NCBI RefSeq assembly: GCF_056712565.1
Contig: NZ_CM160072.1
DNA: 64,000 nucleotides
Strand: one strand, 5' to 3'
This document shows positions 47,530-53,674 of this stretch, piece by piece (positions within the stretch are counted from its first letter, which is position 1; each line of letters starts with the position of its first letter). A model generated the notes under the pieces. That model did not search any database. It worked only from the letters and a program-made list of their open reading frames with translations, and was not told the origin of the DNA. The position numbers and the translations under genes were made by a program.

Positions 47530-48441
47530 ATGCGACTATTTAACTGGCGACGTCAGGCGGTGTTAAACGCCATGCCACTGGTCAAACCTGACCAGGTACG
47601 TACACCGTGGCATGAATTCTGGCGACGATTTCGCCGTCAGCATATGGCGATGACCGCCGCATTGTTCGTTATTTTATTGATTGTGGTGGCTATTTTTGCA
47701 CGCTGGATCGCTCCCTATGACGCCGAAAATTATTTTGATTATGACAATCTGAATAACGGACCTTCTTTGCAGCACTGGTTTGGCGTCGATTCACTGGGGC
47801 GTGACATTTTCAGCCGTGTCCTGGTTGGTGCGCAAATCTCGCTGGCGGCGGGCGTGTTTGCCGTGTTTATCGGTGCGGCGATCGGGACGTTGCTGGGCTT
47901 GTTGGCTGGATATTATGAAGGCTGGTGGGATCGGCTGAGCATGCGCATTTGCGATGTGCTGTTTGCCTTCCCGGGTATTTTACTGGCGATCGCTGTTGTT
48001 GCGGTGTTGGGAAGCGGCATTGCTAACGTGATTATCGCAGTCGTCATTTTTTCCATCCCCGCGTTTGCCCGCCTGGTGCGCGGCAACACGCTGGTGTTGA
48101 AACAGCAAACCTTTATTGAGTCAGCACGCAGTATTGGTGCCAGCGATATGACCATTTTATTGCGTCATATCCTGCCTGGGACCGTCTCTTCTATCGTGGT
48201 GTTTTTCACCATGCGCATTGGCACCTCGATTATCTCTGCCGCCAGCCTGTCATTTCTCGGCCTCGGTGCGCAGCCGCCGACACCAGAGTGGGGGGCAATG
48301 CTCAATGAGGCACGAGCGGATATGGTTATCGCGCCGCATGTCGCTGTTTTTCCGGCCCTGGCTATTTTTCTGACCGTACTGGCGTTCAATTTGTTGGGCG
48401 ATGGTTTACGCGATGCGCTGGATCCGAAAATTAAAGGATAG
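47530..48441 (+). CDS. gsiD: Glutathione ABC importer permease GsiD (303 aa)
   Basis: 303-aa polytopic ORF. Confidence 0.93.
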
Positions 48442-48617
48442 TTACGTTTGAATATTGCTTGAAAGGGTAATCACCTCACAGGAAATTATTGCCCTAAGCA
48501 AGTGTTGTAACTTTCTGCTGATTTTGTAGAATCGGGTAATTTGGTTAAAAAGCCGCAGCAAGGGACTATTTTGCAGCGGCACAGCGTTCAGACAGTTATT
48601 TTGTTAAATGTATTAAC

Positions 48618-50966
48618 ATGCTGAGTTTATACGAAAAGATAAAGATAAGGCTGATAATTTTATTTTTATTGGCAGCACTGTCATTTATTGGTCTTTTTTT
48701 CATCATTAACTATCAACTGGTATCGGAACGCGCGGTAAAACGTGCCGATAGCCGCTTTGAACTTATTCAGAAAAACGTTGGCTATTTCTTTAAAGATATT
48801 GAACGTTCGGCCCTGACATTAAAGGACTCACTGTATTTATTAAAAAATACAGAGGAGATTCAACGTGCCGTGATTCTGAAAATGGAAATGATGCCATTTT
48901 TAGACTCGGTGGGACTGGTACTTGATGATAATAAATATTATCTCTTTTCGCGGAGGGCGAATGATAAAATCGTTGTTTATCATCAGGAACAAGTAAATGG
49001 ACCGCTTGTCGACGAGTCAGGGCGGGTTATTTTTGCCGATTTTAACCCATCGAAACGACCGTGGTCGATGGCTTCAGATGACTCTAACAACAGCTGGAAT
49101 CCGGCATACAATTGCTTTGATCGTCCGGGTAAAAAATGTATCTCTTTTACGCTACACATCAACGGCAAAGATCATGATTTGTTAGCGGTAGATAAAATTC
49201 ATGTCGATTTAAACTGGCGATATCTGAACGAGTATCTTGATCACATCAGCGCTAATGATGAAGTTCTATTTTTAAAGCAAGGTCATGAGATCATTGCTAA
49301 GAATCAACTCGCTCGTGAAAAATTGATTATTTATAATAGCGAAGGTAATTATAATATTATTGATTCTGTCGATACGGAATATATTGAAAAAACATCAGCG
49401 GTGCCAAACAACGCATTATTCGAAATCTATTTTTATTATCCTGGTGGTAATTTATTGAACGCATCAGATAAACTTTTTTATCTGCCGTTTGCTTTCATTA
49501 TTATCGTATTGCTGGTGGTTTATTTAATGACCACTCGAGTGTTCCGTCGGCAATTTTCTGAAATGACAGATTTGGTCAATACGCTGGCGTTTTTGCCCGA
49601 CTCTACGGATCAAATCGAGGCTCTGAAGATTCGTGAAGGCGATGCGAAAGAGATTATCAGCATCAAAAATTCGATCGCGGAAATGAAAGATGCTGAAATT
49701 GAACGGGCAAATAAATTGCTCTCGCTGATCTCTTACGATCAGGAAAGCGGTTTTATTAAAAATATGGCGATTATTGAGTCCAACAATAATCAGTATCTGG
49801 CTGTGGGGATCATCAAACTGTGTGGTCTGGAAGCTGTGGAAGCGGTGTTTGGTGTTGATGAACGCAATAAAATCGTCAGGAAATTGTGTCAGCGAATTGC
49901 CGAGAAATATGCGCAATGCTGCGATATCGTGACATTTAATGCCGATCTCTATTTACTCCTGTGCCGGGAAAATGTACAGACGTTTACCCGTAAGATAGCG
50001 ACGGTAAACGATTTTGACAGCAGTTTTGGCTACCGCAATCTGCGCATCCATAAGTCTGCTATTTGTGAACCTTTGCAGGGGGAAAACGCCTGGAGTTACG
50101 CAGAAAAGCTGAAACTGGCGATTTCCAGTATCCGCAACCATATGTTCTCAGAGTTTATTTTCTGTGATGATGCGAAACTCAACGAAATAGAAGAGAATAT
50201 CTGGATTGCGCGTAATATTCGCCATGCAATGGAAATTGGCGAACTATTCCTGGTCTATCAACCGATTGTTGATATTAACACCCGCACCATTTTGGGCGCG
50301 GAGGCGTTGTGCCGTTGGGTGTCTGCGGAGCGGGGGATTATTTCACCGCTGAAGTTCATTACCATTGCTGAAGATATCGGGTTTATCAATGAGCTGGGCT
50401 ATCAAATTATTAAAACCGCGATGGGTGAATTCAGACATTTTAGTCAGCGTGCGTCGCTGAAGGATGATTTCTTACTGCATATTAATGTTTCGCCCTGGCA
50501 GTTAAACGAACCACACTTTCATGAGCGTTTTACTACCATCATGAAAGAAAATGGCCTGAAGGCGAACAGCCTTTGTGTTGAGATCACCGAAACCGTGATC
50601 GAGCGAATTAATGAACATTTCTATCTCAATATTGAACAACTGCGTAAACAAGGGGTACGGGTATCGATTGATGACTTTGGCACCGGTTTGTCAAACCTGA
50701 AACGTTTTTATGAAATTAATCCAGACAGTATAAAGGTGGATTCGCAATTTACCGGCGATATTTTCGGTACTGCAGGAAAAATTGTGCGCATTATTTTCGA
50801 TCTGGCACGCTATAACCGGATCCCGGTGATTGCGGAAGGCGTAGAGAGCGAAGACGTTGCGCGTGAATTAATCAAATTAGGATGTGTTCAGGCTCAGGGG
50901 TATCTGTACCAGAAACCCATGCCATTCTCCGCCTGGGATAAAAGTGGAAAATTAGTAAAAGAGTAG
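48618..50966 (+). CDS. pdeI: c-di-GMP phosphodiesterase PdeI/YliE (membrane-anchored sensor + EAL domain, 782 aa)
   Basis: N-terminal TM, large periplasmic region, second TM, C-terminal EAL domain (EALCRW motif). Confidence 0.9.
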
Positions 50967-50973
50967 TTTACGT

Positions 50974-52302
50974 ATGTCCAGAATCAATAAATTCGTACTT
51001 ACAGTCAGTCTGCTGATTTTTATCATGATTTCAGCAGTTGCCTGCGGGATCTACACTCAAATGGTAAAGGAACGGGTGTATGGCCTGAAACAGTCCGTTA
51101 TTGATACTGCTTTTGCGGTGGCAAATATTGCTGAATATCGGCGTAGTGTGGCAATTGATCTCATCAACACGCTAAATCCTACGGAGGAACAGCTGTTGGT
51201 TGGCTTACGCACAGCTTACGCCGACTCGGTTTCACCCTCTTATTTGTACGATGTCGGTCCTTATCTGATTTCCAGTGACGAATGTATTCAGGTAAAGGAG
51301 TTCGAGAAAAATTATTGTGCAGATATTATGCAGGTTGTTAAGTATCGACATGTCAAAAATACAGGGTTTATCTCTTTTGATGGTAAAACCTTCGTCTATT
51401 ACCTCTATCCGGTAACTCACAATCGTAGTCTGATATTTTTGCTTGGTCTGGAACGTTTTTCTTTACTGTCAAAATCGCTGGCGATGGATAGCGAGAACCT
51501 GATGTTCTCCCTGTTCAAGAACGGTAAATCGGTGACCGGTGATGAATATAACGCTAAAAACGCCATCTTCACCGTTTCGGAAGCAATGGAGCACTTCTCC
51601 TATTTGCCGACCGGGTTGTACGTATTTGCTTATAAAAAAGACGTTTATTTTCAGGTATGTACATTGATTATTTTCTTTGCCGCATTGGTGGCAGTGATAT
51701 CGGGTGCCAGTTGCCTCTATCTGGTACGCAGAGTGATTAATCGTGGTATTGTGGAGAAAGAAGCCATTATTAATAACCATTTTGAACGCGTACTGGATGG
51801 CGGGCTTTTCTTTTCGGCTGCCGATGTCAAAAAACTCTACAGTATGTATAACTCGGCATTCCTGGACGATCTGACCAAAGCGATGGGCAGAAAATCCTTT
51901 GACGAAGATTTAAAAGCGCTGCCGGAAAAAGGCGGTTATTTGTGCCTGTTTGACGTCGATAAATTCAAAAACATTAACGACACCTTCGGTCATTTGCTGG
52001 GCGATGAAGTGTTGATGAAAGTGGTGAAAATCCTTAAATCACAGATCCCGGTAGATAAAGGTAAAGTTTACCGCTTCGGAGGTGACGAATTTGCGGTGAT
52101 TTATACTGGCGGCACGCTGGAAGAGTTGCTATCGATTCTAAAAGAAATCGTTCATTTCCAGGTGGGAAGCATTAATTTAAGCACCAGTATCGGTGTAGCG
52201 CATTCAAATGAATGTACTACCGTTGAACGTTTGAAAATGCTGGCGGATGAGCGGCTGTATAAGAGTAAGAAAAACGGCAGGGCGCAGATTAGCTGGCAGT
52301 AA
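50974..52302 (+). CDS. dgcI: Diguanylate cyclase DgcI/YliF (membrane-anchored sensor + GGDEF-type domain, 442 aa)
   Basis: Two TM segments flanking a periplasmic region; C-terminal GGDEF-family domain with RFGGDEF. Confidence 0.9.
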
Positions 52303-52312
52303 TCATTATTCG

Positions 52313-52342
52313 CAGGCCGGACAAATGATTTTGCCCGGCCTG
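52313..52342. terminator. Putative bidirectional terminator between convergent dgcI and rimO
   Basis: Inverted repeat caggccgg...ccggcctg. Confidence 0.4.
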
Positions 52343-52348
52343 AATTAA

Positions 52349-53674
52349 TTAAACCCGGCTACCCCACAAATCGTACTCATCGGCGTGCTCGACTTTCACT
52401 CGCAGGATATCACCCGGCTTAACGTTGGTTTCACCATTGAGATAAACCGCGCCGTCGATTTCCGGTGCATCTGCCATGCTGCGACCAATCGCGCCTTCTT
52501 CGTCCACTTCGTCGATAATCACCAGAATTTCACGGCCCACTTTCTCTTGCAGGCGCTCGGCGGAAATTTGCTGCTGCAACTGCATGAAACGGTTCCAGCG
52601 TTCTTCTTTCACTTCTTCCGGAACCTGGTCAGGCAGGGCATTGGCGTCTGCACCTTCAACCGGGCTGTATTTAAAGCAGCCAACGCGATCCAGACGTGCT
52701 TCTTTCAGGAAGTCGAGTAGCATCTGGAAATCTTCTTCCGTCTCGCCAGGGAAGCCAACAATAAAGGTTGAGCGTAGGGTCAGTTCCGGGCAGATTTTGC
52801 GCCACTGTTTGATGCGCGCCAGTTGGCGATCTACAGAACCCGGACGTTTCATCAGTTTGAGAATGCGCGGGCTGGCGTGCTGCAACGGAATGTCCAGATA
52901 CGGCAGGATTTTGCCCTCTGCCATCAGTGGGATGACGTCGTCCACATGCGGATAAGGGTAAACGTAGTGCAGACGTGTCCAGATCCCCAGTTTCGATAAC
53001 TGTTCGCACAGGCTGACCATGCTGGTTTTTACCGGCTCGCCGTTGTGGAAGCCAGTACGATGTTTAACATCGACGCCATACGCGGAAGTATCCTGCGAGA
53101 TCACCAGAATTTCTTTAACGCCCGCATCAACCAGACGTTTCGCTTCACTTAACACTTCGCCAATCGGACGGCTCACCAGATCGCCGCGCATAGACGGAAT
53201 AATGCAGAAGGTGCAGCGGTGATTACAGCCTTCAGAAATTTTCAGATAGGCATAATGACGCGGCGTCAGTTTCACACCTTGTTCTGGCACCAGGCTCAGG
53301 AATGGGTTGTGTTTCGGTTTTGGCACGTAGTGATGAACGTGCTCCAGAACCTGCTCATAGCTATGAGGCCCGGTGATTTCCAGCACTTTCGGGTGGACTT
53401 CGCGGATCTGATCTTCTTTTGCCCCCAGACAACCGGTCACAATTACCTTGCCGTTTTCATTCAACGCTTCACCAATGGCTTCCAGTGATTCTTGTACCGC
53501 GCTGTCAATAAAGCCGCAGGTGTTGACGATCACCATGTCCGCATCATCATAGCTCGGTACCACGTCATAACCTTCAGTGCGTAGTTCGGTGAGAATACGC
53601 TCTGAATCGACAAGGTTTTTCGGACAGCCAAGGGAAACAAAGCCGATTTTCGGCTGGGGAGTTACTTTGCTCAT
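52349..53674 (-). CDS. rimO: Ribosomal protein S12 methylthiotransferase RimO (441 aa)
   Basis: Radical SAM motif CNHRCTFC and MTTase N-terminal cysteines. Confidence 0.95.

Follow-up and report, generated by a model that had tools for sequence, protein, structure and literature searches.

In Escherichia coli, the classic co-transcribed pair of genes for a diguanylate cyclase (GGDEF domain) and a phosphodiesterase (EAL domain) is dosC-dosP (dgcO-pdeO), in which the cyclase gene comes first and whose products, the cytoplasmic heme proteins DosC and DosP, sense O2 and form one complex. The CSS-domain phosphodiesterases PdeB, PdeC, PdeD, PdeG, and PdeN carry a redox-sensitive periplasmic disulfide. 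The DgcC/PdeK-Bcs concept of a local module of cyclic di-GMP (c-di-GMP) signaling is that of the Hengge lab. DgcJ-NfrB is a local c-di-GMP module that feeds an exopolysaccharide synthase in E. coli (PMC8669469), and DosC homologues, too, travel with plasmid-borne bcs clusters (bioRxiv 10.1101/2025.05.09.653004). Here, we analyzed another cyclase/phosphodiesterase pair, pdeI-dgcI (yliE-yliF), in a stretch of 64,000 nucleotides (nt) of contig NZ_CM160072.1 (RefSeq assembly GCF_056712565.1; this whole stretch is termed the window herein). The two genes belong to the 29 GGDEF/EAL genes of E. coli and are among the least understood of them. Our reading, to which we give a probability of about 0.55, is that they form an AT-rich, horizontally mobile two-gene module between gsiD and rimO, the products of which would be opposing enzymes gated by sensors.

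The window matches E. coli ATCC 11775 with 100% identity. In that strain, the genes bear the annotations pdeI and dgcI and have gsiD and rimO as neighbors. At least 80% of the region is present in 5,380 of 5,426 complete E. coli genomes; the locus is the already named pdeI-dgcI pair, and the genes are known. A preliminary description of the window had placed an EAL gene and a GGDEF gene in tandem on the same strand, 7 bp apart, each encoding two transmembrane (TM) helices around a large periplasmic region, and coordinates, spacer, Pfam EAL and GGDEF assignments, and hydropathy all agree with this layout. The TM segments span residues ∼11 to 33 and 289 to 309 in PdeI, enclosing ∼255 amino acids (aa), and residues ∼7 to 27 and 228 to 250 in DgcI, enclosing ∼200 aa; basic residues on the cytoplasmic sides of these segments fit an N-in/C-in topology. 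The features are as follows:

48442..48617, + strand: gsiD-pdeI intergenic region of 176 nt, where the GC content begins to drop
48618..50966, + strand: pdeI (yliE), ATG start, 782 aa; TM1, periplasmic sensor (predicted dCache), TM2, linker, degenerate GGDEF, EAL
48717..49481, + strand: PdeI periplasmic sensor, aa 34 to 288, of which Pfam CHASE9 covers only aa 35 to 150
[quoted passage not shown]
49113..49139, + strand: PdeI periplasmic cysteines C166-x7-C174, on either side of a predicted beta-hairpin loop
49758..50177, + strand: PdeI degenerate GGDEF-like domain, aa ∼381 to 520 (alignment; NCBIfam GGDEF-EAL models start at aa 378/388)
50211..50918, + strand: PdeI EAL domain, aa 532 to 767 (Pfam; residue table of PMC3484386)
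50967..50973, + strand: pdeI-dgcI spacer of 7 nt (TTTACGT), with a weak AAGAG Shine-Dalgarno sequence overlapping the end of pdeI
50974..52302, + strand: dgcI (yliF), ATG start, 442 aa; TM1, periplasmic GAPES2 sensor, TM2, GGDEF
51055..51654, + strand: DgcI periplasmic sensor, aa 28 to 227 (Pfam GAPES2; predicted compact dCache-type fold)
51283..51318, + strand: DgcI cysteine pair C104-x10-C115, inside the GAPES2 sensor
51856..52284, + strand: DgcI GGDEF domain, aa 295 to 437 (Pfam; residue table of PMC3484386)
52313..52342, no strand: GC-rich hairpin in the spacer of dgcI and rimO, which are convergent (folding against shuffles)

An exhaustive HMMER search of 1.84 billion cluster representatives, with both periplasmic regions concatenated as the query, returned only 49 proteins (E ≤ 0.001), mostly fragments of the E. 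coli proteins together with about a dozen relatives of 23 to 50% identity, and the result was the same in a word-indexed search covering 5.8 billion proteins. By these searches, the distribution appears to be remarkably narrow, comprising Escherichia and a few plasmid lineages; a genome scan with the DgcI sensor as a single protein matches close relatives only and says nothing on absence from other Escherichia. About 100 plasmids in PLSDB carry such paralogues, all but one of them from E. coli. Every PdeI-like relative that could be placed in context had a GAPES2-GGDEF gene directly downstream on the same strand, and the order of CHASE9-EAL followed by GAPES2-GGDEF recurs in six lineages that are only 31 to 41% identical (the chromosome, L001, L002, L005/L006, L007, and L013). 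The contexts other than the chromosome, including a seventh one (L014), are these:

L001, E. coli plasmid p40EC-3: 11-nt overlap, followed by bcsA-bcsB-bcsC (L001 10901-21823)
L002, Salmonella Saintpaul plasmid: 9-nt gap with GGAGG, no bcs
L005/L006, two draft contigs: overlap or gap of ≤32 nt, according to how the genes are called; bcsA-bcsB lie 3.4 kb downstream, past an insertion sequence (IS) (L005 6711-10979)
L007, integrative-element-like contig: 9-nt gap, TraI and integrase
L013, plasmid pSF10EC-2: 4-nt overlap, IS-flanked
L014, seventh context: IS1-truncated GGDEF gene, adjoining bcsABC (L014 12031-20404)

The junctions are tight or overlapping in all lineages, some with a strong Shine-Dalgarno sequence placed for coupled translation. 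Pairwise identities among the PdeI-like proteins correlate with those among the DgcI-like proteins (r = 0.998, or 0.94 without one close pair), and the sensors have diverged further (20 to 34% identity) than the catalytic domains (42 to 59%). On the chromosomes of E. albertii and E. whittamii, the gsiC-gsiD-pdeI-dgcI-rimO synteny holds. Judged by these comparisons, pdeI-dgcI is inherited as one unit and not as chance neighbors. Of the local signaling module that the preliminary description had implied, the part borne out by the shared order, the tight junctions in six lineages, and the parallel divergence is that the two genes form a real unit.

The GC content is 41.7% across the pair (positions 48250 to 52350), with local minima of 36 to 37%, versus 53.5% for the upstream 10 kb and 50.3% on the downstream side, and the mobile paralogue pairs have 33 to 35% GC in surroundings of 46 to 51%. 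This compositional island suggests a horizontal origin from a low-GC donor. H-NS-type silencing of pdeI-dgcI is possible and would fit the reported induction at 37°C. IS1 or IS200-family elements often lie between the plasmid pair and the bcs cluster; the bcs association and adjacency have already been described (bioRxiv 10.1101/2025.05.09.653004). Because three mobile contexts adjoin extra bcsA-bcsB-bcsC clusters, the ancestral target of the module was probably a c-di-GMP-activated cellulose (Bcs) synthase.

Both enzymes of the pair appear to be complete. The PdeI EAL domain (Pfam E value, 2.6e-69) has the full catalytic set (EALxR, N, ExxE, DDFGTG, K, EGVE, and QG; residue table of PMC3484386), the EAL motifs, including AQGY, are found in PdeI of the window and in all five lineages, and the domain aligns strongly to active EAL structures; as far as its residues tell, it is a catalytically complete phosphodiesterase domain. 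PdeI also aligns to the NCBIfam model of DosP. In DgcI, the GGDEF domain (Pfam E value, 2.9e-25) has an intact active site, with RFGGDEF conserved in 8 of 8 sequences. The inhibitory I-site, RxxD, is absent from DgcI, where DKGKVYRF precedes GGDEF, and the residue table of PMC3484386 gives the I-site residues as "GE"; the domain reads as a complete GGDEF cyclase domain without this feedback site, which many members of the family have but which does not define it. No lineage has lost a catalytic residue of either enzyme.

Between TM2 and the EAL domain, PdeI contains a GGDEF-like domain, overlooked in the preliminary description, with FNADL where GGDEF is expected (NKNKY, SPYKY, or SDKRF in the paralogues), and the position of the first metal-binding Asp is also lost. 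Pfam GGDEF does not match this domain even at E ≤ 1, and the domain yielded no sequence alignment to any solved GGDEF domain. From these replacements, it is predicted to be catalytically dead, yet it is conserved in all lineages. The published G412S allele alters a Gly of this degenerate domain, namely that of an "xxFG" corresponding to the NDxxGH element. The ratio of nonsynonymous to synonymous substitution rates (dN/dS), measured against three Escherichia orthologue sets, was 0.03 to 0.06 for the dead GGDEF domain, 0.04 to 0.10 for the PdeI sensor, and 0.03 to 0.08 for the DgcI sensor, with 0.01 to 0.02 for gsiD and ∼0.004 for rimO as comparison genes. Both sensors are under purifying selection and are not decaying; degenerate periplasmic domains, which had been named beforehand as an outcome that would speak against a signaling module, are not what values of 0.03 to 0.10 describe.

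The periplasmic domains, previously called uncharacterized, are in fact already catalogued in Pfam, PdeI aa 35 to 150 as CHASE9 (E = 5.9e-63) and DgcI aa 26 to 229 as GAPES2 (E = 6.8e-140), and a 2025 preprint named the PdeI-type architecture "CHASE9-xCache" (bioRxiv 10.1101/2025.05.09.653004). The two sensors have no sequence kinship with each other (BLASTP E value, 0.53; hhalign probability, 0.1%), Pfam dCache_1 (PF02743) matches neither of the E. coli sensors, and comparison of either sensor profile with solved structures by sequence gave only noise (E ≥ 0.15). A plasmid paralogue of PdeI (L001) does match dCache_1, below threshold (E = 2.1e-7; 31.1 bits, with a gathering cutoff of 45 bits), and another relative matches a PDC sensor model (E = 1.1e-3). 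Structures were predicted from alignments of 8 sequences per sensor, built from few divergent relatives, and had a mean pLDDT of 84.4 and a pTM of 0.81 for PdeI residues 30 to 295 and a mean pLDDT of 81.8 and a pTM of 0.73 for DgcI residues 24 to 232. In each model, two alpha/beta modules, one membrane distal and one membrane proximal, come after a long stalk helix between the two TM segments, as in a dCache (double Cache, tandem PAS-like) fold. In a Foldseek search, the DgcI sensor model matched KinD (E = 9e-5) and then CqsR, LuxQ, and McpU, with TM-scores of 0.45 to 0.6, and LuxQ was among the structural matches of both sensor models. Both sensors are thus predicted to be dCache folds, with CHASE9 and the next 140 residues of PdeI forming one dCache domain, and the Pfam families CHASE9 and GAPES2 most likely represent dCache domains that have diverged very far and are narrowly distributed. 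The statement of the preliminary description that there is no obvious known ligand-binding fold holds for ordinary sequence searches and fails at the fold level, where the structure prediction that it had proposed gave a recognizable dCache-type fold for both proteins. Ligand surveys that are based on motifs and start from the dCache_1 hidden Markov model would miss PdeI because PdeI fails that model.

In PctA numbering, the AA_motif of dCache_1 domains consists of Y121-x4-R126-x-W128, 13 to 17 residues, Y144, ∼27 to 34 residues, and D173, of which R and W hold the ligand carboxylate and Y and D the amino group (PMC8915833). The PdeI sensor has F142-x4-R147-x-W149, 14 residues, Y164, 32 residues, and D197, the last in a conserved D/E column, so that R, W, Y, and D are all present with the required spacings; D192 also lies within the spacing range. 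The motif occurs at one alignment position in five of seven lineages, in its exact form (YxxxxRxWY...Y...D) in the three paralogue lineages L001, L002, and L007 and in a relaxed form in E. coli, an 88%-identical relative, and fragment P0074; its N-terminal half is present in fragment P0069. R, W, and Y are lost jointly in the L005/L013 lineage, which would be expected if these residues act as a set. Among 200,000 composition-matched shuffles, 361 (0.18%) contained the relaxed motif anywhere. The PdeI model places R147 and W149 within a short turn of helix, Y164 on the next strand, and D197 on a strand two elements on, an order that we take to fit the distal module of the dCache topology. The first motif residue is Phe142 in the window and its close relatives and Tyr in L001, L002, and L007; according to PMC8915833, "certain variability" of the motif is tolerated. 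No recognizable AA_motif was found in the DgcI sensor. The near-complete AA_motif of the PdeI sensor is a lead toward an amino acid-like ligand and not a demonstration of one, and it turns an unspecified periplasmic cue into a concrete candidate ligand class.

Each periplasmic sensor contains exactly two cysteines, and both pairs are kept in relatives that are only 20 to 35% identical; in PdeI, C166 is invariant and C174 is kept in all full-length lineages. These pairs are probably disulfides. In DgcI, the C104/C115 pair is specific to the family, as are the stalk-helix residues N51, E54, and R56. A link of the sensor cue to the upstream glutathione importer gsiABCD (thiol/redox) was considered and dropped, as the mobile copies never occur with gsi genes and the pdeI-dgcI pair is a compositionally distinct insert.

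Upstream of pdeI, a promoter-like TTGTAA-16-TAGAAT is located at 48505 to 48532, the consensus match of which is no better than chance, and a native 250-bp upstream fragment drove PdeI-BFP in K-12 (PMC11651652). Consensus scans detected no promoter-like or terminator-like sites on the + strand from 49112 to the dgcI start; as the counts of these scans are not above those of shuffles, they carry little weight either way. The dgcI-rimO hairpin, the only strong one (dG, −20.3 kcal/mol; z, −3.95; equaled by none of 200 shuffles), is probably a shared bidirectional terminator. No Rfam elements (riboswitches or small RNAs) were found between 48000 and 52600 at E ≤ 1. Both the pdeI and the dgcI mRNA rise when uropathogenic E. 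coli is shifted from 23 to 37°C. Genomic SELEX (gSELEX) revealed an RpoN holoenzyme peak inside yliE, upstream of yliF, at K-12 coordinate 874,568 (PMC8743547), which maps to about 50000 to 50970 of the window. Near the pdeI-dgcI junction, no sigma-54 motif (GG-N10-GC) reached 8 of 11 matching positions, the sole hit being weak and located at 49705, and a sigma-54 promoter upstream of dgcI, suggested by gSELEX, was rejected for want of a convincing motif there.

The integrity of the locus varies in individual assemblies. Public assemblies yield very large clusters of "partial" PdeI fragments (P0004, 233 aa and 2,214 members; P0013, 523 aa and 1,708 members), indicating that pdeI is interrupted in many drafts from E. 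coli and Shigella, possibly by IS insertions. The pdeI orthologue of the E. albertii type strain, NBRC 107761, starts with ∼30 codons (L009 7576-7665) that are out of frame relative to E. coli and contain a stop; its remainder shows 88% identity and evolves under purifying selection. The 5′ anomaly could reflect a pseudogene, another start codon, or a sequencing error. E. coli O157:H7 M1300706001A has a RelE/ParE toxin and helix-turn-helix antitoxin gene pair inserted in the dgcI-rimO spacer (L012 5504-6505). A 249-bp low-coverage contig of Nocardioides malaquae strain Y6 (L011) shows 98% protein identity to the start of E. coli dgcI and almost certainly stems from E. coli DNA contaminating this actinobacterial assembly.

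In the model that we favor, a single transcript would begin upstream of pdeI and carry both genes, the translation of which would be coupled. Each periplasmic sensor would gate its own enzyme, and the cues would set the balance of c-di-GMP synthesis and breakdown at the membrane. PdeI would most likely respond to an amino acid or to a similar compound (amine/carboxylate), with R147/W149 holding its carboxylate and Y164/D197 its amine in the membrane-distal pocket, and the dead GGDEF domain might relay or gate the signal to the EAL domain. In this model, we infer the single transcript, the ligand class, the opposing regulation, and the output.

Several points weigh against this reading. On the sensor side, chromosomal PdeI has Phe for the first motif Tyr, E. 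coli PdeI lacks the Pfam dCache_1 match, and alignments of only 8 sequences limit what the models say about the fold. On the expression side, co-transcription is likely from the 7-nt gap, the lack of promoter-like or terminator-like sites ahead of dgcI, the hairpin only after dgcI, the tight junctions, and the joint rise of the mRNAs, but the RpoN peak lies upstream of yliF, and DgcI protein is undetectable in K-12 under standard conditions. In Shigella flexneri, dgcI is intact and pdeI is not among the intact phosphodiesterase genes, so at least one lineage can do without the pairing. As for the output, three of the six mobile contexts (L002, L007, and L013) have no bcs nearby, and for the chromosomal pair, which has no adjacent bcs, a cellulose output is a guess. 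Finally, pBAD::pdeI overexpression raised c-di-GMP 11-fold, and PdeI was called a synthetase (eLife 2024, PMC11651652), which contradicts a simple phosphodiesterase role.

The literature on PdeI activity is in conflict. When present on a multicopy fragment or an ASKA plasmid, pdeI, like five other phosphodiesterase genes, confers resistance to phage N4 (efficiency of plating, <8e-8), the infection by which requires c-di-GMP (PMC7553319). Overexpression of PdeI(G412S) gave no c-di-GMP rise, and G412S, as cited in the same paper, is a motility suppressor that lowers c-di-GMP in a ΔpdeH strain (PMC11651652); going by that citation, the allele was read as phosphodiesterase activating in one line of work and as cyclase inactivating in the other. 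As for DgcI, the heterologous cyclase WspR complements the adherence phenotype of ΔyliF in CFT073 (PMC3484386), and the S. flexneri orthologue makes c-di-GMP. That PdeI is itself a synthetase acting through its divergent GGDEF domain, the reading of the eLife study, would account for the rise on overexpression and its loss with G412S, and is hardly tenable in view of the replaced signature and lost metal-binding Asp, the failure to match Pfam GGDEF or to align to solved GGDEF domains, the intact EAL residues, and the N4 assay, which points to phosphodiesterase action. Should the eLife measurement hold, the effect of PdeI must be mediated by another cyclase, because the sequence rules out synthesis by the GGDEF-like domain of PdeI itself, and the co-inherited DgcI is the obvious candidate. 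PdeI could then be a partner or regulator of a cyclase, most simply DgcI, in a complex that makes or destroys c-di-GMP depending on the signal state, with the dead GGDEF domain docking onto the GGDEF domain of DgcI or the two dCache sensors pairing in the periplasm. We consider this possible but doubtful. It would explain both the c-di-GMP rise on PdeI overexpression and the reversal by G412S, and it fits the lower c-di-GMP cited for the ΔpdeH suppressor, the strong purifying selection on a dead GGDEF domain kept in all lineages, the strict co-inheritance with tight junctions, and the lack of an I-site in DgcI, which would need another brake. It is opposed by the phosphodiesterase-like effect of pdeI in the N4 assay, by the activity of DgcI in S. 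flexneri, where pdeI is not intact, and by the scant expression of DgcI in K-12, which may not account for the eLife result; in addition, a two-hybrid study reports that DgcI is toxic when overproduced and has nothing on PdeI-DgcI in its text. A bolder version, which we regard as a long shot, makes PdeI and DgcI one heteromeric, co-inherited switch instead of two separate antagonists: the dCache domain of PdeI would bind a periplasmic amino acid or a related metabolite of host or gut, the dead GGDEF domain would signal to the EAL domain and to the cyclase domain of DgcI, and the complex would switch between net c-di-GMP synthesis and net breakdown and locally feed a cellulose-type synthase. 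If true, it would reconcile the reports of PdeI lowering (N4, G412S) and raising (eLife 2024) c-di-GMP.

The possibility that pdeI and dgcI are independent neighbors, separately transcribed and with unrelated roles, could draw on the undetectable DgcI protein, the RpoN peak, and the retention of dgcI and not pdeI in S. flexneri; it is highly unlikely given that six divergent lineages share the order and the tight or overlapping junctions, that the two proteins diverged in parallel (r = 0.94), that all PdeI-like genes examined in context are paired and the sensor families nearly absent elsewhere in the 1.84 billion representatives, and that both mRNAs increase at 37°C. A further alternative concerns the cue: the sensors might bind no small molecules and instead use their cysteine pairs to report the redox state of the envelope, as CSS-domain phosphodiesterases do, or might dock a periplasmic binding protein, as LuxQ does with LuxP. 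Conservation of the cysteines across lineages of 20 to 35% identity, the structural match of both sensors to LuxQ, a tandem-PAS sensor acting through LuxP, and the absence of a recognizable ligand motif from the DgcI sensor all lend something to this idea. We nevertheless judge it improbable, since conserved periplasmic cysteine pairs are usually plain structural disulfides, neither protein matches the CSS-motif family (Pfam, E ≤ 1), no binding-protein gene accompanies the module on mobile elements, and the ligand-contact motif kept in PdeI is improbable by chance.

What we add to the known genes are the dCache predictions, the AA_motif, the cysteine pairs, and the narrowly distributed mobile module with its bcs link, all of which remain within known kinds of c-di-GMP proteins. 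The divergent dCache reading of CHASE9 and GAPES2 bears on sensor-domain classification, and the dead but conserved GGDEF-like domain of PdeI bears on the published synthetase claim. If true, an amino acid-gated pdeI-dgcI would be the first dCache module of this kind in E. coli c-di-GMP signaling.

Compared with the described dCache_1AA sensors PctA, Mlp37, and Tlp3/CcmL (Gumerov et al. 2022, PMC8915833), the PdeI sensor is only 7 to 14% identical, is filed as CHASE9, has Phe for the first motif Tyr, and carries a disulfide-type cysteine pair directly after the motif Tyr; its output is a degenerate GGDEF plus EAL, whereas PctA, Mlp37, and Tlp3 are chemoreceptors. The nearest structures to DgcI GAPES2 are the compact tandem-PAS/dCache sensors KinD (4jgo), CqsR (9nia), and LuxQ (3c38), to which it has no sequence similarity and TM-scores of just 0.45 to 0.6; the DgcI domain also contains no known ligand motif. 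PdeI shares with the CSS-domain phosphodiesterases the succession of TM, periplasmic domain, TM, and EAL and two conserved periplasmic cysteines, but differs in the missing CSS-motif match, the predicted dCache fold, and the additional degenerate GGDEF domain. In the local modules DgcJ-NfrB and DgcC/PdeK-Bcs, a dedicated cyclase and/or phosphodiesterase serves one c-di-GMP-activated glycosyltransferase, and plasmid PdeI/DgcI paralogues likewise stand directly upstream of bcsA-bcsB-bcsC, whereas the chromosomal pair has no bcs gene next to it. Like dosC-dosP, pdeI-dgcI consists of adjacent cyclase and phosphodiesterase genes on the same strand, and the phosphodiesterase has a degenerate GGDEF domain before its EAL domain; unlike DosC and DosP, PdeI and DgcI are membrane proteins with predicted periplasmic dCache sensors, and the phosphodiesterase gene comes first.

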